IMG/VR virus record: IMGVR_UViG_3300027832_000007
Source: an uncultured virus (IMG/VR IMGVR_UViG_3300027832_000007)
Taxonomy: Duplodnaviria; Heunggongvirae; Uroviricota; Caudoviricetes
Length of the DNA stretch: 61,775 nucleotides
Direction: 5' to 3' (one strand)
Part shown: positions 5,490-56,860 of the stretch, piece by piece
Layout: each line of letters begins with the position of its first letter
Position numbering within the stretch: position 1 is the first letter of the stretch
Program-made: the position numbers and the translations under genes
The notes under the pieces: model-generated
Seen by the model: only the letters and a program-made list of their open reading frames with translations
Databases searched by the model: none
Told to the model about the DNA's origin: nothing

Positions 5490-5501
5490 AAAATAAAAAA
5501 T

Positions 5502-7256: not shown

Positions 7257-7507
7257 TGAAAACCTTGACTCAAGGCATTTATGGTAAAACAATATTTATA
7301 CATGCTTACAAATAAGATGTGAAAGTAAACAATATGAAATCATTATAAAAAATATATATTAAATGTAATAAGTACAAAGTGTTTTCAGAGTTTACTAAGA
7401 CTAAAACATGAATCAGTAGTTATATAAATATTTATAAAATATGTAATAATTTGAATAAAACCAGATACTTATAATAAAATAAATAACATAACTTAAACGT
7501 AAATAAA

Positions 7508-24400: not shown

Positions 24401-25316
24401 ATGCGTCTATAAAATTATGTTTGGTACTAAGTTTATAAGTTTTTTTATTACCAGAATTAATAGTATCCAATACTTTCGACAATACTTTAACTTGATTTAT
24501 CTCATCAAATGAATAAACCATATCACCAATAACAATATCTTTTATCTCCTTATACCCCTCACTTGTCTCAACTCTAGAATTATATTTTAAACACGTACCA
24601 TAAGGTAAACGTCTATCATCACCTAATAAACGGAAATGAGCAATTTGCCAAGAATTAAATTCAACATCACGACCTCTCCAAAAGAATTTAACTTTACCAC
24701 TATCAGAACCTTCATCTATAGTAGTTTCTCGACCAGAAATCATATCAAATAATCCAAATTCTCTACGTTCCATCTCATAATTAGGCATCTGTTTACCACC
24801 TAATACACCTTGTGATTCATCTATATTTAAATATAAAAAATTATCACCATATTTACAAGTATTTCTTGTCCACATAGGTAAAGACGTGTGTAAATCTAAT
24901 CTATTGAAGAATAAATCCTCCAATATAGTTTTAACACGTTTACTATCAGAATAAATATTAATCATTCTACCACTATCATTAACTGTGGTTGATTCTTCCA
25001 TCATAACATCTAAAGCAGCCGCTATAATAGGATAAAATTCCATAGCCTCAAAATCAACATAAGAACCAATTCTAGTCGTTTCATAGTTAATAGATTGTTG
25101 GAATAAACCACTCTCTACCTTTTTCCATGTTTGACCTAAATATTTTTTTTGTTGTGCTTGTAATTTAGCAGTATCATACTCTTGTTTACTATTTGTTTTA
25201 AGTAATTCATTATCTCCTATGTTATATCTTTGAGACTGTTGTTTTTGAACTTTAATACCTTCTGGACTTACAACTTGTCCTAATCTTTGAAATAATGTTG
25301 AATTTTTATTTGACAT
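21402..25316 (-). CDS. gp20: portal protein (T4 gp20-like) with two inteins
   Basis: CKYGDNF, WQIAHFRL, YRVTRAPERRVYKIYVGNI, DFFIPVR, IDTLPG, ALRVPK, DVRFSRTINRIQ; about 692 aa after splicing. Confidence 0.95.
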   Translation of the reverse strand: MSNKNSTLFQRLGQVVSPEGIKVQKQQSQRYNIGDNELLKTNSKQEYDTAKLQAQQKKYLGQTWKKVESGLFQQSINYETTRIGSYVDFEAMEFYPIIAAALDVMMEESTTVNDSGRMINIYSDSKRVKTILEDLFFNRLDLHTSLPMWTRNTCKYGDNFLYLNIDESQGVLGGKQMPNYEMERREFGLFDMISGRETTIDEGSDSGKVKFFWRGRDVEFNSWQIAHFRLLGDDRRLPYGTCLKYNSRVETSEGYKEIKDIVIGDMVYSFDEINQVKVLSKVLDTINSGNKKTYKLSTKHNFIDASKEHKIMYYNTELNKFDYKNTLDFKVGDLLVVDKINLNNVNVPIIRQKNKYDLIGNRLTNDFILEPIKSIEESGEHETYDIYVENDNHNFYANGIVVHNSVLEKARRIWKQLILSEDSMLVYRVTRAPERRVYKIYVGNIDDADVEQYVNTIADRFKRMPITDPQTGQIDLRYNQLSNDQDFFIPVRTEDAPNPIDTLPGACIALDTRIPLLDGRTLELNEIITEWNNGNRNLWVYSCDPISGALAPGVITWAGETRKNTEVMKITLDNGESITTTPDHKWVHRTKGFVEAQDLVIGDSLMPFYRDEEYILKKKYSKKYERVWDSLKQEWVFTHRMVNSFMKDKNKENYFTFEGDYYKTKMKTIHHVDNDRFNNVPKNLTLMNSRDHYQYHRHELWSTPDKAKENIRKITKGINKFISNQTEDEKSIRGEQSKLNSINSRIKSNETFNNNLNKYGIIKLRGEAISKAKSTDEFKESFSKIAKENWESDEYRRKVFSKKQTITFSDKLYNMFFEMFKLCGKADLTLVELNSNEDFMTEFTDSNKDIRSSLTNLNEFTRNHLDKMIKERGFKNYRDWCKVTAEELGYKNVIAWRYYIEKSNKSVEEANYNHKIVNIEWLKVKEDTGTITVDGDELYHNYHTFATEAGNYLKNSNLDQIADIEYLRSNLFTALRVPKPFLGFDETSGDGKNLAIQDVRFSRTINRIQQSMLQELNKIAIIHLYILGFEDDLDNFTLTLNNPSTQAEMLKIENLQLKVSLLKDATSDIGTGFSTMSWTRAHREILGWSDDEIKQDLLEQRMEKAAAAELANTANVIKHTGMFDTVDRIYGDYQAALEGGAGGEAGGVEAGGGGETGGGGLGGGFGGGFGGGGTGGEDLDFGDAEDGGADEVADEGADEGADGGLGGEAGGTGAESGGEDLDFGSTLSENIKRIDKQLTERKNNLTAKLNKRTKKYESKFIDILIEAVKPSNKDKGEKTKVYDKNIKINNDIDNMIDDIDKMLE
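22452..23798 (-). mobile_element. intein (449 aa) with HNH endonuclease in the portal
   Basis: LPGA/CIALDTRIPLLDG, TTPDHKW, IHHVDNDRFNNVPKNL (HNH), ends YHTFATEAGNYLKN/S. Confidence 0.9.
24105..24593 (-). mobile_element. mini-intein (163 aa, no endonuclease) in the portal
   Basis: PYGT/CLKYNSRV ... TYDIYVENDNHNFYANGIVVHN/SVLE. Confidence 0.93.
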
Positions 25317-25634: not shown

Positions 25635-28600
25635 TTATTTTCTTCTTCCAAATAACCAAGCATACTCACCTTTTGGGTCTTGTATATTTTTATATGCCAA
25701 ATGATTTGGATTTATTTTAACTTCAGATTTATTAGTCTCTTTATTATAACTATTAGTAGTTGATGAAATTTGATTACCAGTAGCCCAACTATTTAATATT
25801 GCTTTGTTTTGTTTTTCTAATCTTTCCAAATTCTTAAATGAATGTTCCATTACCCAAAGACCCATACCCAATGACATAAGTAAATCATCGTGATATCCAT
25901 CCATATGGTCTGGTCTACCATTTTTAAATATAAATGTTTTCATTTCTGAAATCATTCTAGTTGAACGAATCTTAATACCATTTGTTCTTATTTGATATTC
26001 TAGATTTGAAATCATTGGTACACGAACATTTGTTGCGTGAAAACCTGGTATTTTACTACCTTTATCATAAGACGTTAACTCTCTTTGTCTAGCAGAAAGT
26101 ATTTTACCGTTATTACTATCATAATGTAAATATTTATAATCGAATTCTAATAATTTAAGTACCGTAGAAACACCCATACCACCAGTAACATCGACTACTG
26201 TATACGCTTTATATAGATTACCATACTCTTCAACAATTTGAGCTAATAAATCTGGTTGTATTTTACCTTGATACTCTAAAACTTCCTCCATTGTGGTGAA
26301 ATCTATAATAACGATAGTTGATGAATCCTCACTATCACCCCTAGATACATCACAATTATGGGTTGTTATATGGTGACACATAAAAGTATTAGTATCACAT
26401 TCAAAATTATATACATTCCCAGTGAACTTATTCTTATTTATTTTTTTAACTCTAAAATAAATATAATCTTTATTATCATCAAAATGACAAGAACTAATGA
26501 TTCGTTTATTCTTGGTATTAAAATCACCAATATCAAATTTATTTAACTTAATATCATCAGTTTTATAAATTAATTTTATTAAATCCAAACTGTCATGATT
26601 ACCTAAAGTTAAATTGTAGGTCTCGCTTTGTTGACATTCACGACCACAAATTATTGTAATTTTAGCATCTCGTAACTTATCTAAACATGAAACAACTCCC
26701 AATGAAAAAATAATATCTTGTACCGACTCCAATAATTCTAAATTGGTACTAACAAAACTTACCTTAGAATATTTCTTCCCGTTTTTCTGAGTTTTAACCC
26801 AACACCCATCACTATCAAAATACCCTCTAATTAATTCTTTTTTATTTTCATCAGATATAAACTTAACCCATTCTGATATTTTTTTACCATGTGAGTATTG
26901 TCCGAAATTTTCTAATATGAAATAATATAAAAATTTAGAATTAAACACTAGTTCAAAAGTACTACCTTTATCGATAAATGATGGTGAACTTTTAAATAAT
27001 CGTTTTATTATATCTTTACATTTCTCAATATAACCTTCATGTTTTTTATCAAAACATAACGATATTGCATATGAGTGTTTATTTTTATCTAATCCCCCAT
27101 CACCTAACCACATACCCATAAACCACCAAAAATCGTTCTCAAACAATGGTGACTCAAATTCAAATTCACATCTGACAGCATTATCTATCTTCCATTTATT
27201 ATTATAGCCACTTTTAATTGACTCTTTATAAATATTCGGCACCTTGACCCAATCCCCAATCTCAACCTCTTCTACCCTAGTATAATTAAAATCAAAATCC
27301 CAATACCTATCATTAAATTTATATTCATCATTATTTTTATCATAATTTCGTTTTAAATTAGATTTACTAATTAAAATTGGGTGTTCCTTAGTAAATGTTG
27401 TTGTTCTAAATGTATTATCCATTTGCATTTCAAACACATCTTCATCAACCACTTGGTAAATTTGTTTATTAATTATATTTACATAATTACCATCTTCACT
27501 TATTAACCTATCATTAATATCAACATCTTCAATATTTACCAATCCTTTATCGGTTAAGACTTTTTCATTCGGTGGTAAACATCCTAAAATATATTGGTGA
27601 CCCTCAATAGGTTCTTCCCATATCCAAGTCTCTTGCTCTAGACCATGCATATACTTAGGTTCTCTTACATTATTTTTATCTTGATATTCAATATACTCTT
27701 CATTAATAACGTTACCACCAGAACCAATAAATGACACATCTAATTCTTGTGCAATCATTTTTGAATCATTATTCATACCTAAACACATCTCTTCATACCA
27801 ACTCGATGTAGGTTTCCACCCATCACTTATTCGTTCTGAATATGTTTTAAATGTAAACTCAACCTCTTTCTCCAAAAGGTCCCCTTTAATCCATCTAAGG
27901 TCTTTATTATAACGTAAATCTTCAAACCATCTCATCTCAACAATGTTGAAATTATTCTTTTTATTTTTAGCTTGGTCATAAGTCTTATAATATAAAGAAT
28001 CCATACCATTAGGTGTTTGATGACCTAATATACCATTATAAATAACGGAATGACACCAAAAATCATTAGTTTCGGGTAATGAAACATCATATGTTTTATT
28101 TTTAAGTTTTTCTAATTTAGTTATTGGAACCCATTTTGAATCTTTAAAATTAATTTTATCAATTGAATATCTGGATAAATCAAGATTTAAAACATTAATA
28201 AAATAATCTATAAATTCATTAAAAATATTTACTGATAAATTAGCTGTTTTGTTTTTATTAGAAATTCTAATTTTATTAACTAGTAAACCAGTGTTAGATA
28301 ATTTTTTAACTAATTTATGTTCGTCTATAATATTTCTAATTATATTTTTACCGTTTGGTATTATTCTATATCCATTATTATATGATACTAATTTATTTTG
28401 GTCTCTTTTTATTTGTTTCCTATTAAATCTAAAACCAATGGTATCGTAATATTTATCCGCATCAATAGATGTCGATGAAAGTCTATAATATTGACTACTA
28501 ACTTTAACTTTTTTAGTTGGTGGTGTTATTTCTTCTGAATAATCAGTTAATATACCAAGATTTAAAAATAAAAACCTTATTTGTTGAATTAATTTTTTAG

Positions 28601-31301
28601 AGGATAAATTTATACCTACCCTACCTCTAATATTATCAGAATAACCATCACCATCCATAATACCTTGTAACATAGCAATAATATTTTCACGCCCCATTTC
28701 AAGTAAACGTCTAGGTATTAATTTATTTGGTGCTTTTAAGGTTAAATCAAAACCCAAATACTCTAACAAACTACCTAAATATTTAGATGAAATTTTATAG
28801 TGTAAATTATCGTGTGATGAATAATCAAACCCAGCATTAGATATGTATGTACCAACATCATCACCACATGATATCGTAATATCACAACCAACAATAATAC
28901 CATCAATATTTTTTGGTTTATAACAAGACCCTTCTGATAAATATAAACCAATTAGATAAGCTAAATCAGTATTTATTTTATCATAAATTATTTTTGGTTT
29001 ATTTTCTCTATTTGAAAACTCATAGGCAAAATCAATAGTATCGTTATTACCGAAAATATTAAACGAATGTTGTACGTTAACATAATCACCAATTTCTAAT
29101 TCACTAACCGTAAACCAATCATATTTGTTTTTTTTATTTGAATAAGACCACAATTTATGTGTTTCAGTCGACTCAAGTTCTGAATTAGTAGTTGTTAATT
29201 TTATAGTTTCTTGAAAACCATTATTAACAATTAAATTTGATTTCCTAGATATATTATTTCCTCTAATATTATATTCTTTAACATAATAACCTAAATTAGG
29301 TATATCTGGTTCATCATAATTAATAATGTCTTTCATTTGTTGTAAACCAGTATCAGTAAAAATAAAAGTATCTTCAGTAACACAGGATATAAGTGTTGCT
29401 CGACCCCCAGTATTATGACTTATAATACCGTTTGAAATAAATGAATTTGTTTCTGGTACATGTAAATCATAAGTATAATCTTCTGACTCAGTTATAGAAA
29501 TAATTTCATCAATATAAAATAATTCTTGTCTTTTTAATTGTTCAGTTAATGATAATAAAAAAGCATTATTTGGTAACAAGGATAATAAACGGTTTAATGA
29601 TTCGACACTTAATCTATTTAAGTCTGATTTCCAAAATCTTTCTAAAAATCTAACTTTAGTTTTAACTATATTATTTATTTGTAAAACTTCTAAAATTTCT
29701 TTATTACTTACATTAACAAATCTTGAGTTTTGTTTCTTATTTAATAAAAATTGTTTATTATTTTGTTTTCTATCTAATCTAAAACCAATTTCGTCATAAA
29801 ATTTAATTGCATAATTTGAATATATTTTTAAGTTGTAAATTTTACAAATATGTTTTTTATTTTTTAATATTGATGATTTAGATGTTTTTTGTTCTTCATA
29901 TTTAACATGTGATATAATACCAAAATTAAACAATAAAGTTTGTAGAGTTTGAATTAGTTTTTTAGATGTACTTGAATATTTAATATCTTTTATAGTACTC
30001 ATACCATCACCATCGAACATACCTTGTAAAAATGCTTTAATAACATCTTTAGGCATCTTTAATAACGCTAAAGGTATTTCTTTATCCCTAGCGTTATGTT
30101 TATCCAATCCAAACATTTTAAACCATTCAATTAATTCGGTTGAGTGAAATTGATAATGGAAGTCATCAACTTTTTTAAATGCGTTACCTAAACAAGCTTT
30201 ATCTGTTAATAGAAAATTTGTTATATAATCGTCAATATTTGTGATGGTAATACCTCTTGAATTAAAATTACCCTCAGCTACGAATAAACCTAATAAATAA
30301 GAAAAATCTAAATTGTCACCAAGCTTTTTAGGTATTGTGATGTTTTTATTATTTTTGGTTTTATTGAAAACAAAATTTACTTCACTATTATCACTAAAAT
30401 AATTTTGACCATATTGAATTATTGGTTTGTCACCAATTTTTAATTCGTTCATACGAACCCAATTTTCAGTTCCATTCCTATCAATTAAGATAGGATGTTT
30501 CCAACTCCCCTCTAATTCAACACCTAATTTAGTTTTTATTTTAAATGTTTGACCATATTCACTAACAAAAGTTTGAGTTGCATTAACAATATCACCATCT
30601 TTATTACAAACTTTATGTGGTAACTCCAAATCAGTGAAACCTATTTTATCTTTTTCAGAAACTAATTCATCAAGTTGAATTAAACCATTTTCAGTTAAAA
30701 TTAACGAATCTTTTGTTAAGCATCCTAAAGCTGTAAGTGCGGCACCAAAAACTTCAGCACCATTATCAATATATGCAGCCTCATCCATGATAAGAAATGT
30801 AGGTGTAAAACCCCTCAAAGCATCTTTAGATGTAGCAACCGCTTTAACACGACTACCATTAGGTAATTTTATTTCTTTTTTTGAATCTGTAATAAAAATT
30901 GATTTGGCGTCCTTTTTAGCATCACCACAATACTCACTTCCCCATACCCATCTAGGTAATTGACCAAGAAAATCTTTAATCTTAGCTAAGAATTCAAATG
31001 CAAGTTCTTGTTTATTGGCAATAATAAGTATATTCTCTGGGTTATCCCTATCACCAAAACCTACTTTGATTGACATATATGCAGCGGTTGTTGTTGATAC
31101 ACCAGCTTGACGTGGTTTTGTTACAATATTAAATCTATGTTTATCATATGCTTTAATTATTTCTTTTTGTCTAGGAAATAATTTAAAAGGTACGAAACCT
31201 TCTTGCGTTTTATCGAACGTTTCTAAATATGTCTCAATAGCATGAACAGAATCAGTAAGACAATGAGCATACTCTTGAAATATTTCTTGTGTTGTTAACA
31301 T
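25635..31301 (-). CDS. gp17: terminase large subunit (gp17-like) with three inteins
   Basis: LFPRQ, KPRQAGVST, RGFTPTFLIMDEAA, ISTPNG after splicing, GCDVSRGD, HDDLLMS; about 586 aa mature. Confidence 0.95.
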   Translation of the reverse strand: MLTTQEIFQEYAHCLTDSVHAIETYLETFDKTQEGFVPFKLFPRQKEIIKAYDKHRFNIVTKPRQAGVSTTTAAYMSIKVGFGDRDNPENILIIANKQELAFEFLAKIKDFLGQLPRWVWGSEYCGDAKKDAKSIFITDSKKEIKLPNGSRVKAVATSKDALRGFTPTFLIMDEAAYIDNGAEVFGAALTALGCLTKDSLILTENGLIQLDELVSEKDKIGFTDLELPHKVCNKDGDIVNATQTFVSEYGQTFKIKTKLGVELEGSWKHPILIDRNGTENWVRMNELKIGDKPIIQYGQNYFSDNSEVNFVFNKTKNNKNITIPKKLGDNLDFSYLLGLFVAEGNFNSRGITITNIDDYITNFLLTDKACLGNAFKKVDDFHYQFHSTELIEWFKMFGLDKHNARDKEIPLALLKMPKDVIKAFLQGMFDGDGMSTIKDIKYSSTSKKLIQTLQTLLFNFGIISHVKYEEQKTSKSSILKNKKHICKIYNLKIYSNYAIKFYDEIGFRLDRKQNNKQFLLNKKQNSRFVNVSNKEILEVLQINNIVKTKVRFLERFWKSDLNRLSVESLNRLLSLLPNNAFLLSLTEQLKRQELFYIDEIISITESEDYTYDLHVPETNSFISNGIISHNTGGRATLISCVTEDTFIFTDTGLQQMKDIINYDEPDIPNLGYYVKEYNIRGNNISRKSNLIVNNGFQETIKLTTTNSELESTETHKLWSYSNKKNKYDWFTVSELEIGDYVNVQHSFNIFGNNDTIDFAYEFSNRENKPKIIYDKINTDLAYLIGLYLSEGSCYKPKNIDGIIVGCDITISCGDDVGTYISNAGFDYSSHDNLHYKISSKYLGSLLEYLGFDLTLKAPNKLIPRRLLEMGRENIIAMLQGIMDGDGYSDNIRGRVGINLSSKKLIQQIRFLFLNLGILTDYSEEITPPTKKVKVSSQYYRLSSTSIDADKYYDTIGFRFNRKQIKRDQNKLVSYNNGYRIIPNGKNIIRNIIDEHKLVKKLSNTGLLVNKIRISNKNKTANLSVNIFNEFIDYFINVLNLDLSRYSIDKINFKDSKWVPITKLEKLKNKTYDVSLPETNDFWCHSVIYNGILGHQTPNGMDSLYYKTYDQAKNKKNNFNIVEMRWFEDLRYNKDLRWIKGDLLEKEVEFTFKTYSERISDGWKPTSSWYEEMCLGMNNDSKMIAQELDVSFIGSGGNVINEEYIEYQDKNNVREPKYMHGLEQETWIWEEPIEGHQYILGCLPPNEKVLTDKGLVNIEDVDINDRLISEDGNYVNIINKQIYQVVDEDVFEMQMDNTFRTTTFTKEHPILISKSNLKRNYDKNNDEYKFNDRYWDFDFNYTRVEEVEIGDWVKVPNIYKESIKSGYNNKWKIDNAVRCEFEFESPLFENDFWWFMGMWLGDGGLDKNKHSYAISLCFDKKHEGYIEKCKDIIKRLFKSSPSFIDKGSTFELVFNSKFLYYFILENFGQYSHGKKISEWVKFISDENKKELIRGYFDSDGCWVKTQKNGKKYSKVSFVSTNLELLESVQDIIFSLGVVSCLDKLRDAKITIICGRECQQSETYNLTLGNHDSLDLIKLIYKTDDIKLNKFDIGDFNTKNKRIISSCHFDDNKDYIYFRVKKINKNKFTGNVYNFECDTNTFMCHHITTHNCDVSRGDSEDSSTIVIIDFTTMEEVLEYQGKIQPDLLAQIVEEYGNLYKAYTVVDVTGGMGVSTVLKLLEFDYKYLHYDSNNGKILSARQRELTSYDKGSKIPGFHATNVRVPMISNLEYQIRTNGIKIRSTRMISEMKTFIFKNGRPDHMDGYHDDLLMSLGMGLWVMEHSFKNLERLEKQNKAILNSWATGNQISSTTNSYNKETNKSEVKINPNHLAYKNIQDPKGEYAWLFGRRK
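26355..27581 (-). mobile_element. terminase intein 3 (409 aa), LAGLIDADG
   Basis: ILG/CLPPNEKV ... GMWLGDG ... IRGYFDSDG ... HITTHN/CDVS. Confidence 0.93.
28017..29384 (-). mobile_element. terminase intein 2 (456 aa), LAGLIDADG, C-terminal Gln
   Basis: LIS/CVTEDTFI ... LIGLYLSEG ... LQGIMDGDG ... NGILGHQ/TPNG. Confidence 0.92.
29412..30722 (-). mobile_element. terminase intein 1 (437 aa), LAGLIDADG
   Basis: ALG/CLTKDSLIL ... LLGLFVAEG ... FLQGMFDGDG ... NGIISHN/T. Confidence 0.93.
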
Positions 31302-36446: not shown

Positions 36447-36692
36447 TTATTGTAAATTATTACTTCCTTGGAATACATCTTTGTTTTCACCTAATAAAAA
36501 ACAACCATCACCACCACTTATTGTCCTTACCCAAACATAGATACTAGAAGAAGCACCAATAGATACACCAACACCGTTAAGTGTTATTGTGCAACCAGCA
36601 GAACCACCATATATCTCAGTATATGTATGTGCGGTTAAATTAGGGGATGATGCTGGAACTATAATGCTATGTATATCATTTATTTTTGCCAT
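36447..36692 (-). CDS. small beta-rich putative capsid decoration protein
   Basis: 81 aa; late promoter at 36709. Confidence 0.5.
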   Translation of the reverse strand: MAKINDIHSIIVPASSPNLTAHTYTEIYGGSAGCTITLNGVGVSIGASSSIYVWVRTISGGDGCFLLGENKDVFQGSNNLQ

Positions 36693-36757
36693 AATCTATT
36701 TCTTTCTTATAAATATTAACAAAAACAAAAAAAACTACTTAATGTAGCTTTTATTTA

Positions 36758-37555
36758 TTAATTCGATAAAGGAGCTTTTATCGTTGGATGTGATTCGTAC
36801 CCAGTAAATTTAAATTGGTCAATGTTATAGTCTGATATGTCAGAACCAATAGGTTCACCATGTATCTCCAATCTAGGTAAGTCAAATGAATCTCTTCTCA
36901 ACTGTTCTTTAGCCTGTTCTATATGATTAGAATATAAATGTACATTGGTTAAATCACCTATTAAAAAACTAGGAACCATATTAACCTCCTTAGCTAACAT
37001 TTCTAATAACAAACCATAAGATGCTATATTAAATGGTAAACCTAAAAATGTGTCAACACTTCTTTGATGCCATTTAAGATTAAGTTTTCTTTTTGGTATG
37101 TTTCTTTCATCACAAGATTTAATTTGTTGAATTGTTAGTGCTGGATATTTTACTTGGATAGTACCGCCAGCCAATTTAACCCTTTCCTCGTCACTTAATT
37201 CTTCAGTATAACACTCAAATGCCCAATGACAAGGCGGTAAAACCATCTTGTCAATCTCACCAACATTCCAAGCTGAGACAATCAATCGTCTTGAGTCTGG
37301 GTCATTTTTTAAACTGTGTATTAACTCTTTAATTTGGTCTAAAATTGGTTGCCTATCAAAATGTGTAACACTACCATGACAGTAAGAAGAAGGTACTAGT
37401 TTATACCCACCCCACGCTCTCCATTGTTTTCCATATACTGGACCTAAATCACCCCATTTTTTAGCAAATTTAATATCAGTTTTAATTCTATCAGTAAATT
37501 CTTCTTGTGTATAAGGTCTACCACTTTCATGTAAATCATTTCTATTTGCTTTCAT
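36758..37555 (-). CDS. thyA: thymidylate synthase, C-terminal (catalytic) fragment
   Basis: DLGPVYGKQWR, PDSRRLIVSAWN, LPPCH, QRSVDTFLGLPFNIASY, HLYSNH, IKAPLSN. Confidence 0.95.
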   Translation of the reverse strand: MKANRNDLHESGRPYTQEEFTDRIKTDIKFAKKWGDLGPVYGKQWRAWGGYKLVPSSYCHGSVTHFDRQPILDQIKELIHSLKNDPDSRRLIVSAWNVGEIDKMVLPPCHWAFECYTEELSDEERVKLAGGTIQVKYPALTIQQIKSCDERNIPKRKLNLKWHQRSVDTFLGLPFNIASYGLLLEMLAKEVNMVPSFLIGDLTNVHLYSNHIEQAKEQLRRDSFDLPRLEIHGEPIGSDISDYNIDQFKFTGYESHPTIKAPLSN

Positions 37556-38258
37556 CTTCTATATTTTTATATTTCCATTTATAACCACCAGCGGTTTTAT
37601 TCCTACCTCTTAAACAATGTCCAATCCCCCCAACATTTATGTTTAACACATTAGCGGCATCTACAGCTGAACTAAACACATCAATAACTTCACCATCTAA
37701 ATTAAGTTGATAAATAGGTTTTTTACTCTGTTCATGTACTTTATTTAGGAATGAATAATCTGTTTTCCTGTTTTTTATTGATTCTCTCCAACTATCCCAA
37801 TCAGTATTTTTCTTTGCTTTATCAGCTCTTTTCTTAAAATCAACTTTTTCGATTCGTTCTCTAAGTATTTTTTTTATTTCATCATCACTAACATTCTTCA
37901 ACCAATCATTCAAGTGTTTACTATTTTCTGGATTGTGAAATGTTGGGTTTGAATAATCTATAAATTTAGATGTATCTCCACCGTCACCTATTTCTTCTCT
38001 CAAATTAGCCCATTCTTTTGACTTAACAACATCGTACAATAAACTCAATTCAAGTCCTTTTTCAATTAACTTGTCAATATCGGTTGTTTCAAAAACAATC
38101 TCGGTCTTAATATCACCAATCGTCAAATTATGTTTTTTAATATGACGCTTCCAAATTTTACCACTACCTAAATATATAAACGGGTCTTTTGTTGTTTTAC
38201 CTAGATACCTTAACCCTATTGGGCTCGTCTTAATGTATAAATAATATTTTTTTTCCAT
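37542..38258 (-). mobile_element. free-standing GIY-YIG (Seg-like) homing endonuclease with C-terminal NUMOD1-like HTH
   Basis: YYLYIKTSPIGLRYLGKT, YLGSGKIW, WANL..GDGGD; KPIYQLNLDG...TAGGYKWKY; inserted inside thyA. Confidence 0.85.
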
Positions 38259-38300
38259 ATTTTAGTTTATATATAAATATGGTGATGGGTATAAGAACTA

Positions 38301-38618
38301 CTAATTATTGTTATCTTTTTTTAATTTTTCACATTCTTTTAAGTAAAAATTATAACTATCCCCATTCCAAATATTACAACCATTATCCACGAGATATTTT
38401 ATATTTGTATCTCCTTTAAGAAACCATAATAATTCAGTTATAATTCCTTTGGTAAACATTTTTTTTGTTGTTAACAAAGGGAATCCAGTTGACATATCAT
38501 GTTTTATTTGATGAGAGAACAATGAAAGAGTACCAGTACCAGTTCTATCCTCCTTTTTAATACCAAAATCTATTATATCCCTAAGTATATTTTGATAATC
38601 TTTATCTAATTTATTCAT
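38301..38618 (-). CDS. thyA: thymidylate synthase, N-terminal fragment (probable start MNKLDKDYQ)
   Basis: YQNILRDI, DRTGTGTLSLF, GFPLLTTKK, ELLWFLKGDTNIKYL, IWNGD. Confidence 0.95.
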   Translation of the reverse strand: MNKLDKDYQNILRDIIDFGIKKEDRTGTGTLSLFSHQIKHDMSTGFPLLTTKKMFTKGIITELLWFLKGDTNIKYLVDNGCNIWNGDSYNFYLKECEKLKKDNNN

Positions 38619-38625
38619 TATATGT

Positions 38626-39084
38626 TTAAACAATAGTTACGTTATTTGTAGTTATTTTTTCTAAATTACTAATATTATCTTTTAAACCTTTTAACGATGC
38701 TTTCGTAACATTACCATTCTTAAAGTAATTAGCAATAATAGTACTCATAGCTTCTAATAATTCTTTTGTTCTAGATTCTGGTGTCGATGTATCTCCAACC
38801 AACTCTAATTCTTTTATTTCTTTAATCATCTCAGTAACATCAATACCACCTAACTTTTCACTAGAGTATTTTTTTATATGACTACTCAATATTGAACCTT
38901 GACTATCAGCAAGTTCAAAACGTGTATAATCTGTTTTTGAAACACCTTTATATAGGTATTGACCACCATACGTAAAAATCAACGTTAAATCGTTTGTTAA
39001 GTTGTTATACGTTGATGCACAAATGTTAGACGATGAATAAATAGCTTTAACTACACCTTCTTGTTCTTTTCTTTTTAAAATCAT
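38626..39084 (-). CDS. KTSC-domain protein
   Basis: SSNICASTY...LTLIF..GGQYLYKGV....Y..F..ADSQG. Confidence 0.75.
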   Translation of the reverse strand: MILKRKEQEGVVKAIYSSSNICASTYNNLTNDLTLIFTYGGQYLYKGVSKTDYTRFELADSQGSILSSHIKKYSSEKLGGIDVTEMIKEIKELELVGDTSTPESRTKELLEAMSTIIANYFKNGNVTKASLKGLKDNISNLEKITTNNVTIV

Positions 39085-39100
39085 TTTTTTTTTTGTTTTT

Positions 39101-39339
39101 TTACTTTATTATTTTTGTTGTTTGATATGATGATATTTCAGATAATTTAAAAATTTTATTATTATATGTATAGGTATCATTATTTTCTTTCGAACCAAAT
39201 TCTGAACTGTTGTAATTATCATAAAATCAGCTTGAAAATTTACTTCACAATTAATAAATTCTAATTTAACCGTACTGCCAAATACCGTATCATTTATTTT
39301 TAATATTAATTCAATTCTTGTATAACTCACGCTCATCAT
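39101..39339 (-). CDS. small hypothetical protein, possibly frameshifted
   Basis: TAnnTTTG promoter upstream; the alternative frame gives a more protein-like C-terminus. Confidence 0.4.
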
Positions 39340-39404
39340 TTACTTTTATACAAATATACGAATATTTAATTGTAAATCAAGTTGGTTTATTAAATAAATA
39401 TTAG

Positions 39405-39412
39405 TACATTTG
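39405..39412 (+). promoter_or_regulatory. Bacteroidota-type -7 promoter element upstream of clpC
   Basis: TACATTTG matches TAnnTTTG; a divergent copy TATATTTG is on the minus strand at 39351-39358. Confidence 0.6.
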
Positions 39413-39438
39413 CTGAAACAAATTAATAAAAAAAAAAT

Positions 39439-40239
39439 ATGAATAGAGAAATTTATCCTAAAGTTAAGATTATAATGAATAACTCAATTAAAGAAGCTAA
39501 AGCTTTTGATGATGTTAAAGTTAAACCAGAGCATATACTCTTATCGATATTATCTGATAATGATAATACATGTGTAAATATATTAAAAAAATTAAAAGTA
39601 GAACCTTCAGATTTATATGATTTAATTTATACATTTGTTAGAGTGAATGATTTAATACCTAGAGTAAGTAAAAATAGACGCTCACTTCCTTTTTCTGACG
39701 AAAGTAAGGCTATTATAAATTCTTTAGATAAAGAGTGTGATAAATTAGGTGATATTATGATTGACACTACTCACATCATGTTGGCTATGTTAAATTCTAA
39801 GTATCCAATATCTAAATTTTTAATCGATATGGGAATTACTTATGACATATTTTTAATATCAATGGTTGGTGAAGATTATAAACCAGAACAAATTAAAAGT
39901 GCATTGGAAGAATCTAGTGATGAGCTAGATTCTTTTAATGGGAAATCAAAACAAGGTGAACCTAAAAGTAAAACACCAGTATTAGATAATTTCTGTAGAG
40001 ATATATCTAAAGCCGTTGAAAGAGGTGAATTAGACCCAGTTGTTGGTAGAGCCCCAGAAATTAAGAGGATATCTCAGATATTATCTAGGAGAAAGAAAAA
40101 TAACCCAGTGTTGATTGGTGAGCCAGGAGTTGGTAAGTGTATTTGTCCTGATACTGAGGTAGTTATGAGAAATGATTTAACTGGAGAAGTGTTTAAAACA
40201 ACAATAACTAATTTATTAAATACGTTTACCAACAGCTAA
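39439..40239 (+). CDS. clpC: ClpC AAA+ chaperone N-terminal part fused to a 33-aa split-intein N-fragment
   Basis: Clp N repeats ([17 protein letters not shown]), [41 protein letters not shown], then /CICPDTEV...*. Confidence 0.93.
40138..40236 (+). mobile_element. split intein N-fragment (IntN, 33 aa)
   Basis: Block [12 protein letters not shown] right after the Walker A Lys, followed by a stop. Confidence 0.88.
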
Positions 40240-40307
40240 TTAACTTTTTTTCACTTCATTATTTACTTTTCTTACTATTGAATATGTTTATAATAAAAGT
40301 AAATGTA

Positions 40308-40661
40308 TGAAAATTAAATATAAAAAGAATGGTAATTTTGAAGTTGAGTTTAACGAATATTTTAAAAACGTTGATAACTTGAAGGGTTTTATAAAATAAA
40401 AAAACAAATTTATTAATGTGGAAACTTTAGAAAATTAAATACAATTGATTTATAATGATTTAGTTTTATTAGACCACTCGATTAAATCTAGTTTATTAGA
40501 TTGGTTTATTGTTGGTAGGTTTAATTTTAAATATAAAATACCTAACAACCTTAATTTTTGGTTAGAAAGGGTTTGATGTAATGGTAGTTTGGGATTCGGA
40601 ATATAGATGGGGAAATAGAGAAGAAATAATAAATAAATGCATTAAATTTTTAAATAAATAA
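40308..40661 (+). pseudogene. decayed Vsr-like homing endonuclease remnant between the split-intein halves
   Basis: MKIKYKKNG...* fragment, NFWLER, then in another frame KGFDVMVVWDSEY...IINKCIKFLNK* (Vsr-type C-terminus); stops and frameshifts. Confidence 0.65.
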
Positions 40662-40663
40662 AA

Positions 40664-41035
40664 ATGGAAGAATTAAAAAAAATAACCAAATCATTTGATA
40701 TGTCTGGTTTTAGTATCTTAACTGATAGTGGTTTTGTGAAACTTGCGAAACTACATGAAACAATACCTTATCAAGTATATCAGCTTAACTTAAATGATGG
40801 GAAAAAACTTAAATGTGCGGATAACCATATCGTATTCTATAAAGATGATATGGAAGAGGTCTTTATTAAAAATTTATTGATTGGTGACAAAATCTGTGTT
40901 AATGGTGATGATAGTTTATCTGAAGTTGAGGTTATTGGTATAACCAATTTAGGTTACGAAGAGATTATGTATGATTTTCAATTAACTGAGGGTTCAAATA
41001 GAAGATATTATACTAACGGAATATTATCACATAAT
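40664..41035 (+). mobile_element. split intein C-fragment (IntC, 124 aa)
   Basis: ILTDSGF, LKCADNH (block B), MYDFQL, YYTNGILSHN/T. Confidence 0.88.
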
Positions 41036-43870
41036 ACTGCAATAGTAGAAGGGTTAGCACAATTAATAATGGATGGTAACGCACCTAGAACCCTAATCAA
41101 TAAAAGAATTTTTAGTCTAGATTTAGCATCGATAGTTGCTGGTACTAAATACCGTGGCCAATTTGAGGAAAGAATGAAAGCTGTTCTAGAAGAATGTAAA
41201 GCAAATCCAAATGTTATTTTATTCATAGATGAACTACACACTATTGTAGGTGCTGGTAATGCTTCTGGTTCTCTAGATGCGTCAAATATATTTAAACCAG
41301 CATTAGCTAGGGGTGAACTTCAAGTAATTGGTGCAACTACACTGGATGAATATCGTGAAAATATCGAAAAAGATGGAGCCCTCGTAAGAAGATTTCAACA
41401 AATTCTTGTGGAAGAACCAACGCTAGATGAAACAATAGTTATTCTTAACAATATTAAAGAAAAATATGAAAAACACCATAATGTTAAGTATACCGATGAA
41501 GCCATTGAGGAATGTGTTAAACTTTCAGCTAGATACATTATGGATAGAGCAATGCCAGATAAAGCCATAGATGTTTTAGATGAAGCTGGTGCGGCAACAA
41601 ATGTTGGTATTGAAAAACCAAACGCTATTAAATTGCTAGAAAATAAGCGAAATGAGGTTAATGAACAGAAAAAAGAGGTTATAATCAAACAAAAATACGA
41701 GGAAGCTGCTAAACTTAGAGATGAGGATAGAAAAATAAGTCAAGAATTAGATAAGGCTATGAAAGTATGGCAAGAAAGTCTAGATAAAGATGTTACTGAA
41801 GTTGGTGTAGAATTAATTTCTGATGTCGTATCTATGATGACTGGAATACCATTAACTAAAATATCAACTGGTGAAAGTAAACGTCTAATGCTTTTAGATA
41901 AAGAACTAATGGGTAAAGTAATCGGTCAAGATGACGCAGTTACCAAAGTTGTTAAAGCAATTAAACGTAATCGTATTGGTATTAAAGATAAAAGTAAGCC
42001 AGTGGGGTCATTTATCTTTCTGGGACCCACTGGAGTCGGTAAGTGTTTTTGTTCTGATACTAAGATAGTTATAAGAAATAAAACTACTGGTTTAGTTGAG
42101 GAAATTGATATTAATGAATTAAAAATGAATAAAAGAATTAAAGAACTACTAGAAAAAGGTGAAAAACTTCACCAAAAACATGATGAATTACGGGATGAGG
42201 TTTTAAAATCAAATTGGTCTGATGATTTTAAAACTAAATTTAAAGAATTAAATGTGTATATGGATGATTCAACTAAAAATGAGGTGTTAGAATATACCCT
42301 ATGTGATAATCTAAATGGTGGTATAGCAAAACCAGAATATAAATTTACTGTTCTAATCAAAACGTTAAATTTTGAAAATAAAAATGGTGATGAAATTAAA
42401 TTAATTACTGATGATGTTGAGTTATTATTAAACCATGAACATTGCTATGTAACTATGTTTGCTATAGGTAAATTAAATGGTGAGGTATTTTCTGTTAATG
42501 AAACTGATGATAGTTTTGATATTTTAGAAAAACATTTATCTAATGGTCACCATATAGTAATATATTCGGCTAGTATTAGTGATGGCAGGGTTATTTATAG
42601 ATATTCATTATTTGAAACGAATGGGTTTATTAAACCATTAAATAGGGTAGAAGAAATTGAAAAAAGAGTTGGTGATAATGTTTTATTATTTAATAAACAT
42701 GAATTTGAGTCACTTAAAAAAATAACAAAAACTACAAAAGTAAGTGATTACGAAGTATTAACTGATGATGGTTTTGTTGATATAGAAGCGTTACATGAAA
42801 CAATTCCATATGAAGTATATAAACTTAAGCTAAGTGATGGTAAAGAGCTTAAATGTGCCGATAACCATATTGTATTTAATGAAGAAATGAAAGAAGTTTT
42901 CGTTAAAAATCTATCTATTGGTGATAAGGTAAAAGTTGATGTTAATTGTGTGTTATCCGAATCTGAAGTAGTTGAATTAACTAATTTAGGTTATGAGGAA
43001 ATAATGTATGACCTTGAATTAAAAGAAGGTTCAAATAGAAGATATTACACCAACGGTATTTTATCGCATAATACATTGTTAGCTAAATTTTTAGCTGAAA
43101 ACGTTTACGGTGACTCAGAAGCTTTGATTAGAATGGATATGTCTGAGTACATGGAAAAACATTCTGTATCTAGACTAATAGGTCCACCACCAGGGTATGT
43201 TGGATACGACCAAGGAGGTCAATTAACTGAGAAAGTTAGACGAAAACCACATTGTGTTATTCTTTTCGATGAGATTGAAAAAGCACATGACGATGTATTC
43301 AACCTTTTATTACAACTATTGGATGAAGGGCAATTAACAGATGGTTTAGGTCGTAAAGTTAATTTTAAAAATGCACTTATTATTCTTACATCAAATATCG
43401 GTGTTAAAGAAGTTTTATCATTCGGTAAAAATATGGGATTTGATACTGGTTCAACTATCTTAGATGAGGAAAATAAGAGTCGTGCTATTATAGAGAAAGC
43501 TTTAAAGCAGAAATTCAAACCAGAATTCCTTAATCGTATTGATGATGCGATTATCTTTAGAGGATTAACACAAGAAGATATTCATAAGATTATTTTCTTA
43601 GAAGTTGAAAAATTAAGAAAACGTGTAATTGAGATGGGTTATAATCTAACGATATCTAAAGATGCTATTGAATTTCTAGGTGTTAAAGGTTATGATGAGG
43701 CTTATGGTGCTAGACCTTTATCTAGAGCAATTCAACATTATGTTGAAGATGCAGTAGCTGATGAAATTCTAAATGATAAAATTAAAGAAGGTGATATCAT
43801 TCAAGTAGGTTTAGATAAAGTAAAACAATTGATTACACTTAAAGGCGTGAAGCCTAAGAAAATAAAATAA
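40664..43870 (+). CDS. clpC: split-intein C-fragment plus the rest of ClpC (AAA1, UVR middle domain, AAA2 with a second intein)
   Basis: SHN/TAIVEGLA, GTKYRGQFEER, FIDELHT, GATTLDEY, PDKAIDVLDEAG, GPTGVGK, RMDMSEY, LFDEIEKAH, MGF ClpP-docking loop, YGARPL. Confidence 0.93.
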   Translation: MEELKKITKSFDMSGFSILTDSGFVKLAKLHETIPYQVYQLNLNDGKKLKCADNHIVFYKDDMEEVFIKNLLIGDKICVNGDDSLSEVEVIGITNLGYEEIMYDFQLTEGSNRRYYTNGILSHNTAIVEGLAQLIMDGNAPRTLINKRIFSLDLASIVAGTKYRGQFEERMKAVLEECKANPNVILFIDELHTIVGAGNASGSLDASNIFKPALARGELQVIGATTLDEYRENIEKDGALVRRFQQILVEEPTLDETIVILNNIKEKYEKHHNVKYTDEAIEECVKLSARYIMDRAMPDKAIDVLDEAGAATNVGIEKPNAIKLLENKRNEVNEQKKEVIIKQKYEEAAKLRDEDRKISQELDKAMKVWQESLDKDVTEVGVELISDVVSMMTGIPLTKISTGESKRLMLLDKELMGKVIGQDDAVTKVVKAIKRNRIGIKDKSKPVGSFIFLGPTGVGKCFCSDTKIVIRNKTTGLVEEIDINELKMNKRIKELLEKGEKLHQKHDELRDEVLKSNWSDDFKTKFKELNVYMDDSTKNEVLEYTLCDNLNGGIAKPEYKFTVLIKTLNFENKNGDEIKLITDDVELLLNHEHCYVTMFAIGKLNGEVFSVNETDDSFDILEKHLSNGHHIVIYSASISDGRVIYRYSLFETNGFIKPLNRVEEIEKRVGDNVLLFNKHEFESLKKITKTTKVSDYEVLTDDGFVDIEALHETIPYEVYKLKLSDGKELKCADNHIVFNEEMKEVFVKNLSIGDKVKVDVNCVLSESEVVELTNLGYEEIMYDLELKEGSNRRYYTNGILSHNTLLAKFLAENVYGDSEALIRMDMSEYMEKHSVSRLIGPPPGYVGYDQGGQLTEKVRRKPHCVILFDEIEKAHDDVFNLLLQLLDEGQLTDGLGRKVNFKNALIILTSNIGVKEVLSFGKNMGFDTGSTILDEENKSRAIIEKALKQKFKPEFLNRIDDAIIFRGLTQEDIHKIIFLEVEKLRKRVIEMGYNLTISKDAIEFLGVKGYDEAYGARPLSRAIQHYVEDAVADEILNDKIKEGDIIQVGLDKVKQLITLKGVKPKKIK
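42044..43072 (+). mobile_element. contiguous intein (343 aa) in the ClpC AAA2 Walker A, with an about 196-aa unknown insert
   Basis: GVGK/CFCSDTKIVIRN ... LKKITK ... LKCADNH ... YYTNGILSHN/TLLAK. Confidence 0.9.
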
Positions 43871-43875
43871 TAATT

Positions 43876-43902
43876 AAAAGGAGATTTTTTCTCCTTTTTT
43901 TT
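43876..43902 (+). terminator. intrinsic terminator after clpC
   Basis: AAAAGGAG-atttttt-CTCCTTTTTTTT. Confidence 0.8.
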
Positions 43903-43914
43903 ATATTTATTATT

Positions 43915-44316
43915 ATGAAATCAATAATAAAACAATTACTTAGAGAAAGACTTATAACACAAGATGAGTTAGACATTAGACAAGTTACGGATTTTATTAA
44001 CTTTTCAAAAGAATATTTAGATATTTCTGATGATATCAAAATTGCGTTGGCGTTTAAAAGAACTGATGATTTAACAACAACCGCATATTATAAATTAACT
44101 GGTTTTATAAAAGTATATGTTAAAAATAGAGCAATTATTGATGTGTGTCGCTCAATTGCACACGAATTAGTCCATCACAAACAAAATTTAGAAGGAAGAT
44201 TAGTTAATGCAGTTAAAGATGGTTCAGATGGTAGTCCAATAGAAAATGAAGCTAATTCAATCGCTGGAGTTTTAATAAGAAAATGGGGGAAAATACACCC
44301 AGAGATATATTTATAG
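43915..44316 (+). CDS. zincin-like metallopeptidase with LLRE leader
   Basis: RSIAHELVHHKQ (HExxH) ... IENEAN; MKSIIKQLLRE. Confidence 0.75.
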   Translation: MKSIIKQLLRERLITQDELDIRQVTDFINFSKEYLDISDDIKIALAFKRTDDLTTTAYYKLTGFIKVYVKNRAIIDVCRSIAHELVHHKQNLEGRLVNAVKDGSDGSPIENEANSIAGVLIRKWGKIHPEIYL

Positions 44317-54841: not shown

Positions 54842-56860
54842 ATGAAATTATATATTAATAAAATAATTATAGAAAACTACTCAGTACCAACAACACAATC
54901 TATCGATGAGATAGATGATATTGCTAATAGTATTCAAGATAATATTAAAAAAGAAATTAAAATACCGTCTGACGTTATTAATAGCTTTGCAATAAACGAA
55001 ACTCTAAACCAAAGTATTTGGGATGGTGATAAACTTAAACCAATTGTTAGAAGAAAACTAATTACAATAGCCAATGATTTTTTTAAAACACTAGACCTAC
55101 CACAAGAAGTTAAAATGAAAGATATTATATTTACTGGTTCACTAGCAAATTATAATTGGTCAAAATTTTCAGATGTTGATTTACATATAGTATTAGATTT
55201 CTCTGAATTAAAAGGTGATAAAGAATTTAAAGAAAATTTCTTCTATGCACATAAAACAATTTGGAATCAAGAACACGATATAACTATATATGATTTCCCA
55301 GTAGAACTATACGCACAAGATATAAAAGCTAAATTGGTGGCATCAGCAGTATACTCAATCAAAAATGATAAATGGGTGTTAAAACCAACTAGAGAAAATT
55401 TTAAAATCAATAAAAATATAATAAAAGATAAAGCCGAAAAGTTTATAGCAAAACTTAGAAGTATAAAACAAGATTATAATGATGATAACTATAAATCAGT
55501 TGTTGCTAAAGTTACATCTCTAAAACATAAAATTAAAAACTATAGAACTGGTGGACTTGAAAAAGGTGGTGAGTTTTCTCTAGAGAACTTAGTATTCAAA
55601 GTACTTAGAAGAACACCATTCATGGATATACTAGATAGCTATAAAGGCAAAGCATATGATAAAATGATGTCAGTAGGTTATTCACTTAATAAAAGTGAAT
55701 TTTCAAATAATGTTTCTCTCTCATTCAAAGAAGAATTTGAAGATGAATATACAATCGAAGCAACATATGAAGATGATATAATTGGAAAATCATTTTTTAA
55801 AATATTATATGACCCATACTCAGATTTTGAAGCCGATTTTACTGAAGACCAAATAGAAGAAATATTTGGTGATGAACCAACAATGGTTATAGAATGGGTA
55901 GAAGTTACTAATGAATACTATCGAAAGTCTGGTGTGGGTAGAGCCATAATGACTAAAACAATTGATAAATGTAAGTCCATGGGTTTCAATAATATTTATT
56001 TAAACGCATCTCCAATAGCTGGTAAAGATTCATTAACACTAGATGAACTTGTTAAATGGTATGAGACCTTTGGTTTTACTTCAATACTAAACCAAAAAAG
56101 GAATACATTAATGATTAAAAAAGGAATTATGAAAGAATATTATAAACATAAATTAAGAGAAGCGTTAAATAAAATTACAGAAGCTAAAAATTACTCATCT
56201 AACAGCGACTACAACTCAACACTATCCAAAATAAAGAAAGCAAATGAACTATACGGTAACGACCCATATTTTAGAAATGTGTCAGAAGGTGAATGGGTTG
56301 GTGAAGCCGTAGTCAATATACACGGAGATATTAAAATAAAAAGGATAAATCAAAACCAAAGAGATGTTAAAGGTAATTCCCTAGGTGGTAGAAGTCAAAG
56401 TGCATTCTATAAAACATTTGAAGTTAACGCCTATGGTAATACTGAAAACCCAAAAGATAGACAAAATAATAGTATTCCAGCAAAAACTAGTTCCTCAGCA
56501 TCCGATGCGGCAATTAAAATACTAATTAACTATGGTCAAGTAATATTAGATTTTATACAAATAAATTTACCAGATTATGACGGTTATATATCAACTGGTG
56601 ATGCAAAAGACTTATCAGCGAAAGCAATGTCTGCTGACCCTAAACTTGAAAAACATAAATTACGTAAAGATTTCGAAATGAAAATAGGTAGACATGCAAC
56701 AGATACAGAATTTCAAGAATTTATTAAGACTGGTGAAACACCAAAAGCACCTCAAAAAACACTTATATCTCCATATACAGAAACTGGTGCCGAAAGAAAA
56801 GCTAGAACGGATGCCGAACGCCTTGAAAAAAGTGAAAGACTTAGAAAGAAAAGAGGATAA
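54842..56860 (+). CDS. Pol-beta-superfamily nucleotidyltransferase fused to a GNAT acetyltransferase and a C-terminal unknown domain
   Basis: FTGSLANYNWSKFSDVDLH (GS-DxD), VELYAQ; YRKSGVGRAIM...IYLNASP...LVKWYETFGF (GNAT). Confidence 0.8.
   Translation: MKLYINKIIIENYSVPTTQSIDEIDDIANSIQDNIKKEIKIPSDVINSFAINETLNQSIWDGDKLKPIVRRKLITIANDFFKTLDLPQEVKMKDIIFTGSLANYNWSKFSDVDLHIVLDFSELKGDKEFKENFFYAHKTIWNQEHDITIYDFPVELYAQDIKAKLVASAVYSIKNDKWVLKPTRENFKINKNIIKDKAEKFIAKLRSIKQDYNDDNYKSVVAKVTSLKHKIKNYRTGGLEKGGEFSLENLVFKVLRRTPFMDILDSYKGKAYDKMMSVGYSLNKSEFSNNVSLSFKEEFEDEYTIEATYEDDIIGKSFFKILYDPYSDFEADFTEDQIEEIFGDEPTMVIEWVEVTNEYYRKSGVGRAIMTKTIDKCKSMGFNNIYLNASPIAGKDSLTLDELVKWYETFGFTSILNQKRNTLMIKKGIMKEYYKHKLREALNKITEAKNYSSNSDYNSTLSKIKKANELYGNDPYFRNVSEGEWVGEAVVNIHGDIKIKRINQNQRDVKGNSLGGRSQSAFYKTFEVNAYGNTENPKDRQNNSIPAKTSSSASDAAIKILINYGQVILDFIQINLPDYDGYISTGDAKDLSAKAMSADPKLEKHKLRKDFEMKIGRHATDTEFQEFIKTGETPKAPQKTLISPYTETGAERKARTDAERLEKSERLRKKRG

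Follow-up and report, generated by a model that had tools for sequence, protein, structure and literature searches.

Two related inteins in the paired Walker A loops of a phage ClpC gene, one split and one in a single chain

What protein, or proteins, would be made from a gene whose two ATP-binding loops are both interrupted by inteins, and how did two such similar inteins come to lie in it? The question is raised by a ClpC-type unfoldase gene on the (+) strand at 39439-43870 of a 61,775-nucleotide stretch of DNA from an uncultured virus (IMG/VR record IMGVR_UViG_3300027832_000007; the whole of this stretch is referred to below as the window). The window belongs to a freshwater T4-like phage of low G+C content (25-30%), whose genes include those of a Gp23-type capsid protein, a Gp20-type portal, a prohead protease, a large terminase and PhoH. 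Its clpC gene is spread over two open reading frames (ORFs), and both Walker A loops are occupied by an intein between the Lys and the Thr. Probably these are two mobile sister inteins, of old common origin, that rebuild one ordinary full-length ClpC. An earlier note on this DNA had gone further, proposing that the free N-terminal piece of the first intein might also pair with the second, and so join the Clp N-domain directly to the second AAA module; that proposal is weighed below.

ORF A (39439-40239) encodes the Clp_N domain and the start of the first AAA module (AAA1) as far as the Walker A lysine, GEPGVGK (the N-extein; 233 residues, 39439-40137), and continues into a Cys-starting piece of 33 residues, IntN1 (40138-40239, with its TAA stop at 40237-40239). 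ORF B (40664-43870), whose frame is open over 1068 codons despite the base composition, begins with the 124-residue C-terminal piece of the same intein, IntC1 (40664-41035), which has its block-B His in CADNHIVF and ends in SHN. There follow Thr and the middle extein (336 residues, 41036-42043), which completes AAA1, adds the lid and a short middle domain, and opens the second AAA module (AAA2) as far as GPTGVGK; then an uninterrupted intein 2 of 343 residues (42044-43072); and then the C-extein (43073-43870), which takes up AAA2 again at Thr+1, in TLLAK, and runs through the D2-small domain to the stop. The N-extein is 40-69% identical to the N-part of ClpC-like genes on 60 and more viral contigs, and the middle extein 62-88% identical across loci. 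Pfam matches to the host protein are Clp_N (E 1.6e-12), AAA (1.3e-13), AAA_lid_9 (2.3e-29), AAA_2 (1.4e-61) and ClpB_D2-small (9.3e-23), so that the domain set of a ClpC/Hsp100 class-1 AAA+ unfoldase (Clp_N, two AAA modules, D2-small) is complete. The middle domain scores 12.6 bits as a UVR-type domain against a cut-off of 21.5, and a possible ClpP-binding loop motif is recognizable by eye only. In the intein-free relative L009 the sequence is contiguous at both points (GEPGVGK/TSIVEGLAQ and GPTGVGK/TLLAKLLAE); removal of both inteins would therefore give an ordinary ClpC of 834 residues. The earlier note had placed both insertions at GVGK/T, and the anatomy of the ORFs together with the contiguous relative bears this out. 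The region that it singled out (40664-43072) contains the two C-parts and the whole of intein 2; it leaves out IntN1 (40138-40236) and the gap between the two ORFs.

Contigs from an independent study of lake water are identical to the window, with zero differences, over 40657-42522, which takes in the junction between the N-part of intein 2 and its insert, and over 40212-40716, which takes in the IntN1 stop, the gap and the start of IntC1. The split state of intein 1 and the one-piece state of intein 2 are therefore not artefacts of a single assembly. Two other contigs that might have been read as a shortened gene were taken instead to come from another organism or a relative. One (X5) joins 40658 to 42607; the other (X7), of which one side has a mere 24 letters, connects 40136 with 43144. 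A likeness threshold of 92 was in use, and the loose ends near 40130-40139 are G+C-rich. The X5 contig comes from an independent freshwater run and links sequence resembling the end of the dead endonuclease gene described below (to 40658) to sequence resembling that from 42607 onward, just 5' of the C-part of intein 2. It is probably from a relative with a live endonuclease gene ahead of the C-piece of its second intein.

In each intein Cys1, the block-B His, the terminal HN and Thr+1 are retained. The residue directly after GVGK is Cys at both sites (the loop of AAA1 is called site 1 here, that of AAA2 site 2), as it is in all 16 N-parts compared, and CADNH and SHN are invariant in 16 of 16 C-parts. 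The usual intein block motif is TxxH, with Thr; in the C-parts an Asp stands in the place of this Thr. Intein 1 is naturally split, with 33 residues and a stop followed by 124 residues from the ATG at 40664. This fits the layout of the atypically split inteins described in PMC10189870, taken here to mean an N-piece that stops after about 15-40 residues and a C-piece of more than 100 residues that opens a separate ORF. The same split is found in six of six site-1 loci, with N-pieces of 30-42 residues. Intein 2, as one chain of 343 residues, lies outside that definition, and eight of the ten site-2 relatives lie inside it, their N-part (IntN2) stopping after 28-32 residues and their C-part (IntC2) being made separately. 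As in short-N inteins of the Cat type (PDB 6DSL), the ClpC N-piece of about 30 residues holds block A only and the long C-piece holds blocks B, F and G.

To what family do these inteins belong? A profile of the 16 ClpC intein C-parts, searched against 1.84 billion representatives, found 1132 proteins at E<=1e-3; in about 125 of the best 150 of the 1132 the C-part stands at the very start of the protein and is hence split. Exteins in the family open with Thr or Ser after the terminal HN. Among 94 members scanned with Pfam the hosts are terminases (35), DnaB-type helicases (13), Clp-type AAA+ ATPases (12) and ABC ATPases (2); of the remainder, one has a weak clamp-loader match and 31 have no extein family. 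Compared with solved inteins, the family profile matches 6dsl_B, the consensus atypically split intein CatC (E 7e-8, profile positions 12-123), which is the nearest solved structure by sequence, and also 6qaz_A (2e-6). By sequence, then, the ClpC inteins are members of a large family of short-N ('atypically split') P-loop inteins, and the short-N P-loop intein is a known kind of element. The window holds no further copies of the ClpC intein family, the best other tblastn match having an E of about 0.06.

Pairwise alignment and phylogeny had been proposed as the check on the relationship of the two inteins. IntC1 and the C-part of intein 2 are identical at 83 of 124 residues (67%, E 6e-57), which agrees with the strong likeness of the C-parts that the earlier note remarked on, and the N-parts are identical at 12 of 26 (E 7e-6). 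The tree was built from 164 C-parts, namely the 16 from ClpC and 148 of the best 150 of the 1132 (two were left out as incomplete matches). One clade on it unites the six site-1 inteins with two Clp-AAA1 cases from the database; next to it stands a clade of the ten site-2 inteins, to which three Clp-AAA2 cases and a single other host also belong; and a supported set of 24 rows (SH-aLRT 95) encloses the two clades. The two inteins are thus related, as members of sister clades, and the tree supports their descent from one ancestor that spread between the P-loops of the two rings long ago.

Each lineage appears to be mobile still, and at its own site only. The relative L002 carries the family at both sites, and its intein DNA is far more like that of the window than its extein DNA, which is what continuing site-faithful mobility leads one to expect: IntN1 is identical at 95 of 99 bases, IntC1 at 359 of 372, IntN2 at 77 of 81 and IntC2 at 416 of 432 (95-96.5% for the inteins), against 66.7-76.1% for the exteins. 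Neither site is occupied in 46 of 69 loci; the family is at site 1 in seven and at site 2 in ten, with two further site-2 cases cut by contig ends, and L002 and L032 have it at both sites. This patchy distribution fits mobile inteins, as expected. Seven loci (L006, L017, L033-L035, L037 and L038) have something else at the same site-1 P-loop position, an unrelated in-frame insert of 1092 nucleotides (364 residues). It has no match to the ClpC intein family, and in L006, the one to which Pfam was applied, it shows as a LAGLIDADG intein. In L033-L035 this insert occurs together with a short-N family member at site 2.

Between ORF A and ORF B lies a gap of 424 nucleotides (40240-40663) that reads as a dead, free-standing homing-endonuclease gene of Vsr-like (DUF559) type, since two pieces of the relatives' intact endonuclease ORFs can be matched to it by tblastn, with in-frame stops and with much of the gene lost. 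The first ~93 codons are recognizable at 40307-40603, with three in-frame stops (60% identity to residues 2-93 of the L003 protein, E 5e-33), and the last 28 codons at 40569-40652 (79% identity to the L004/L018 type, E 1e-14); about 355 codons from the middle are gone. The 3' end of this site-1 wreck is of a type otherwise met at site 2. Relatives have intact ORFs of 406-517 residues between the intein halves, at site 1 in L003 and L032 and at site 2 in L004, L007, L018, L032, L033 and L053. DUF559 is matched at the C-terminal domain of the L003 and L007 proteins (22.0 and 22.2 bits; cut-off 20.6); ORFs of the L004 type have no Pfam match, but they match phrog_22677. In L002, the closest relative, the space between the site-2 halves (5500-7500) contains a C-5 cytosine DNA methyltransferase gene (Pfam 3.9e-42) beside a truncated DUF559 endonuclease and small ORFs. 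Cargo beyond the homing nuclease thus builds up inside this fractured gene.

Intein 2 is constructed differently. Its N-part (27 residues from Cys1; 42044-42124), the counterpart of the relatives' separate IntN2, reads into an insert of 172 residues (42125-42640), which occupies the exact split position of the relatives, and on into a C-part of 144 residues (42641-43072) that starts with NRVEEIEKRV, ends in SHN, is the counterpart of the relatives' IntC2 and is 96% identical in DNA to that of L002. The insert opens with a linker of about 40 residues, after which come ~130 residues from the C-terminal end of a small phage protein family, and it is 79% identical to a free-standing ORF at 3671-4402 of L064. 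Elsewhere this passenger family is seen as a free-standing phage gene of 244 residues (L064/L065) and fused ahead of IntC2 (L018, L067). It has eight database relatives, three named 'hypothetical protein' and five without a name; neither Pfam nor PHROG matches the insert. Neither the insert nor the gap at site 1 has DNA repeats elsewhere in the window. Among the ten site-2 loci the single-chain form occurs only in the window and in L015, where it is a mini-intein of 173 residues. The DNA across the junction in the window resembles that of L067 and L002 to about 42134, with small indels, and the linker beyond has no clear DNA relative. Probably the single-chain intein 2 arose by re-fusion of a formerly split intein, after loss of the stop and spacer. 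Several other IntC2 ORFs (L004 6426-6620, L007 6760-6940, L032 7113-7420 and L008 upstream of 769) carry differing N-terminal add-on domains of 60-150 residues that have no family match, and it seems that foreign domains tend to be taken up at the front of the long C-piece.

These observations can be put together as follows. ORF A would give the Clp N-domain with IntN1 attached, and ORF B a protein that opens with IntC1; the two would associate at site 1 and splice in trans. At site 2 the N-part would be read through the linker and the captured passenger into the C-part, and intein 2 would splice in cis. The end product would be one ClpC of 834 residues with two intact GVGKT loops. As to history, one ancestral intein would have jumped between the P-loops of the two rings long ago and each lineage would then have homed to its own site; an endonuclease gene that once lay between the site-1 halves would have decayed, with the split retained.

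The two inteins are not equally related along their length. At the front of the C-piece (its first 35 residues) the within-site identities are 0.79 and 0.86 and the between-site identity is 0.55 (maximum 0.63); the variable middle has 0.39 and 0.36 inside the two sites against 0.37 across them, and nearest neighbours there cross sites. Trees of the corresponding segments agree: over columns 1-58 the site-1 inteins group as a clade (support 100/98), and over columns 59-116 a site-1 clade is rejected (AU p 0.0005), in a segment test that was run after the identity pattern had already been seen. Sites have evidently traded the middle of the C-piece, while the N-piece, and the strand that contacts it in the model described below, stayed site-specific.

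This exchange bears on the sisterhood of the inteins, since it opens the way to another history, in which the two P-loops were invaded independently and the sister look came from later exchange of segments, not from one founding jump. Many unrelated ATPases do have the family in their P-loops, exchange of the middle segment between sites is clear, a non-Clp host (P0005) is nested in the site-2 clade and a terminase (P0012) lies just outside the joint clade. Nevertheless, the unexchanged ends (columns 1-58 and 117-147) are closer to each other than to those of other family members on the whole-length tree, and we consider two separate invasions unlikely.

Does each intein keep to its own partner? 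When IntN1 and the C-part of intein 2 are modelled together, IntN residues 8-12 lie against the C-part strand YEVL. Nine columns separate the two sites fully; six of these are among the 37 columns, out of 123, that make contact in the model (one-sided Fisher p 0.021, from the contact map of a non-cognate pair and with diagnostic columns that are adjacent and hence non-independent). IntN position 13 is D in six of six site-1 pieces and K in 10 of 10 site-2 pieces; column 26 of the C-piece holds Lys in the site-1 inteins and Asp in those of site 2. With a site-specific contact part and an exchanged middle, the two inteins are read here as putatively partner-faithful pairs with distinct recognition surfaces. 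They may be a naturally co-evolved orthogonal pair, in which partner choice depends on a few interface residues and the rest recombines freely, a state of affairs likelier than the single-ring isoform considered next. The candidate specificity residues would be position 13 of IntN (D/K) and columns 11, 12, 17, 18 and 26 of IntC.

The contrary proposal is that free IntN1 has a second partner in the C-part of intein 2, so that the Clp N-domain is joined to AAA2, skipping AAA1, in a single-ring isoform that the phage uses. The two inteins are of one family, with the identities in N- and C-parts given above, and cross-talk has been reported mostly among atypically split pairs with one short piece (PMC7090010, Pinto 2020). 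The model of this cross pair itself passes, with a score of 0.71 against 0.01 for the best of three controls; the mark was attained by 116 of 157 solved complexes and by two of 215 mismatched pairs, the runs share >=79% of contacts and partner pLDDT is >=71. The method also passes close cousins of a true partner, and a similar complex has already been solved (6DSL), so that this pass shows likeness and not binding of this pair. Against the proposal, intein 2 is a single chain whose own N-part, tethered to it, would compete at very high local concentration, and the N-pieces and the modelled contact strand of the C-piece (within its first 35 residues, which are strictly site-specific) are just the most site-specific parts. 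In the relatives in which both inteins are split (L002, L032, L067), cross-splicing would circularise or chain the middle fragment, and selection should oppose it. DNA or protein evidence of an N-domain-AAA2 product was not found, and nothing positive has emerged for the alternative splicing that the earlier note had imagined. We regard its use by the phage as very unlikely. A single-ring unfoldase beside full-length ClpC, made by free IntN1 in competition either for the C-part of intein 2 or for an internally started passenger-IntC2-AAA2 product, is given equally little chance.

The prior sight of the identity pattern in the segment test, the non-cognate contact map and the passing score of the cross pair all weigh against the reading preferred here, that of two partner-faithful sisters rebuilding one ClpC, and so do several further points. 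Both splicing reactions are inferred from sequence. The Pfam profile Intein_splicing is matched at only 28.8 bits, below its cut-off of 35.8. The AF2 models that bear on whether the insert of 172 residues leaves the intein fold intact are of low confidence, the mean pLDDT being 47.5 for the insert (alignment of 11 rows) and 49.5 for the whole of intein 2 (14 rows). The site-specific ends could have come from co-conversion with the endonuclease gene instead of from selection on partner choice. At site 2, the junction DNA fits re-fusion and ancestral contiguity alike, in either direction.

Might one or both inteins be dead for splicing, and the clpC gene dead or a mere carrier? The endonuclease at site 1 is a wreck, and intein 2 has a large foreign insert and lacks a confident model. 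These signs of decay must be set against the intactness of all the splice residues, the 1068-codon frame kept open at 25-30% G+C, the conservation of the exteins across more than 60 phage contigs, and intein sequences that are 95-96% conserved with respect to L002 and unchanged in the independent study. Death of the inteins or of the gene is, accordingly, highly improbable.

Finally there is the age of the likeness between the two inteins. The earlier note pointed to similarity at the DNA level also, and the stretch that it named is indeed alike (40990-41037 and 43027-43074; 42 of 48 bases identical), as are the two inteins overall (271 of 384 aligned bases, 71%). At the 83 identical residues, 49 codons are the same where 47.0 are expected from the codon usage of the window, so that the DNA likeness is no more than protein conservation and AT-biased codon usage predict; synonymous sites are saturated. 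A recent origin of the likeness within this genome, by duplication or by gene conversion from one site to the other, which the overall DNA identity and the 48-nucleotide stretch might have suggested, is hardly credible in the face of these codon counts and of the fact that L002 has, at the same site, a counterpart 96-97% identical to each copy, but the two copies in the gene are only 67% identical. The idea that an intein passed from one AAA ring to the other is accordingly supported, by the sister clades, as an old event, and falls as a recent one.

How do these inteins compare with those already known? AceL-TerL and GOS-TerL, atypically split (short-N) phage terminase inteins with the consensus 'Cat', resemble them in that both kinds are inserted in the P-loop before Thr or Ser, and terminase is the commonest host in the family. 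The ClpC inteins differ from the terminase ones in their host, an unfoldase of ClpC type, in being two related copies at equivalent points of two AAA modules, and in having, as one of the copies, a single chain whose split point is filled by a passenger domain. The inteins of the fractured genes collected by Dassa are also worth setting beside them; these reportedly have the usual long N-piece.

Such fractured genes, with a Vsr-like free-standing homing endonuclease between the halves of a split intein, were described mainly from environmental phages (PMC2677866, Dassa 2009). The ClpC gene is like them in being cut by a split intein and in that the relatives' intact inter-half ORFs have a DUF559/Vsr-like end; unlike them, the window has only the 424-nucleotide wreck of an endonuclease at site 1 and none at site 2, and the text of that paper mentions neither Clp nor the P-loop. 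The point between Lys and Thr of the P-loop, with Thr as the nucleophile, is called a 'classic' insertion site in PMC5050341 (Kelley et al. 2016). The inteins treated there share with ours the insertion at GK/T and the +1 Thr, and they are those of mycobacteriophage terminases, Clp appearing, in the text, only in reference to a ClpP intein. Where both ClpC inteins are split (L002, L032) one protein would be assembled from three pieces, as in engineered tandem trans-splicing (PMC12707363, PMC7090010), and two pairs that do not cross-react are therefore needed. In contrast with the engineered orthogonal pairs of those papers, the ClpC pair is natural and consists of close relatives, with C-parts that are 67% identical. 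No description of inteins in ClpC-type ATPases was found in a literature search whose coverage did not extend to subscription journals.

What is added here to the known short-N P-loop intein is a test of the sisterhood of two copies, whose separation would be old while each is mobile at its own site; a mosaic pattern with a site-specific contact surface; and a single-chain form with a passenger that is not a nuclease at the atypical split point. Split inteins of the short-N type are prized as tools, since the N-piece can be a synthetic peptide. The clpC locus offers natural close relatives side by side in one gene, and in some related phages as two fully split pairs; their differences are concentrated on the modelled contact surface, which provides a short list of residues that may set specificity. 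Stages in the life of an intein at a non-canonical insertion point can also be read from the locus: the endonuclease present (in relatives), the endonuclease decayed with the split kept (site 1), and a single chain with a captured passenger domain that is not a nuclease (site 2). If the re-fusion reading is true, a split intein can become contiguous again. If the single-ring isoform, against our expectation, were to prove real, two forms of a chaperone would come from one phage locus. For phage biology these inteins are otherwise ordinary selfish DNA in a conserved ATPase.

A few remarks on expression signals and on other elements in the window may be added. By consensus scan only, a terminator-like hairpin lies directly past the gene (43876-43898, +) and none lies between ORF A and ORF B. 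A promoter scan found 28 sites where 30.5 were expected, and hence no excess; Rfam had no match over 36500-44000, and megablast of the gene against the phage collection gave none either. Three further proteins are oversized, all encoded on the (-) strand. The terminase (1888 residues, 25635-31301) and the prohead protease (621 residues, 17547-19412) have intein-splicing and LAGLIDADG profile matches; the portal (1304 residues, 21402-25316) has an intein-splicing match and a weak HNH match (16.7 bits, cut-off 24.8). On these profile matches the phage carries at least five inteins in its 62 kb, those of terminase, portal and protease being from families other than that of the ClpC pair. Thymidylate synthase is also in two ORFs (38301-38618 and 36758-37555, -), and the ORF of 238 residues that lies between them has NUMOD1/I-HmuI-like DNA-binding motifs. 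No group I intron was found there by Rfam at the gathering score (36500-44000). The split looks like an insertion of an intron or of a free-standing endonuclease, and T4 td is a comparable arrangement of the thymidylate synthase gene. A protein of 672 residues (54842-56860, +), which falls into a PHROG of unknown function, has weak matches to a nucleotidyltransferase (20.3 bits, cut-off 21) and to a GNAT acetyltransferase.

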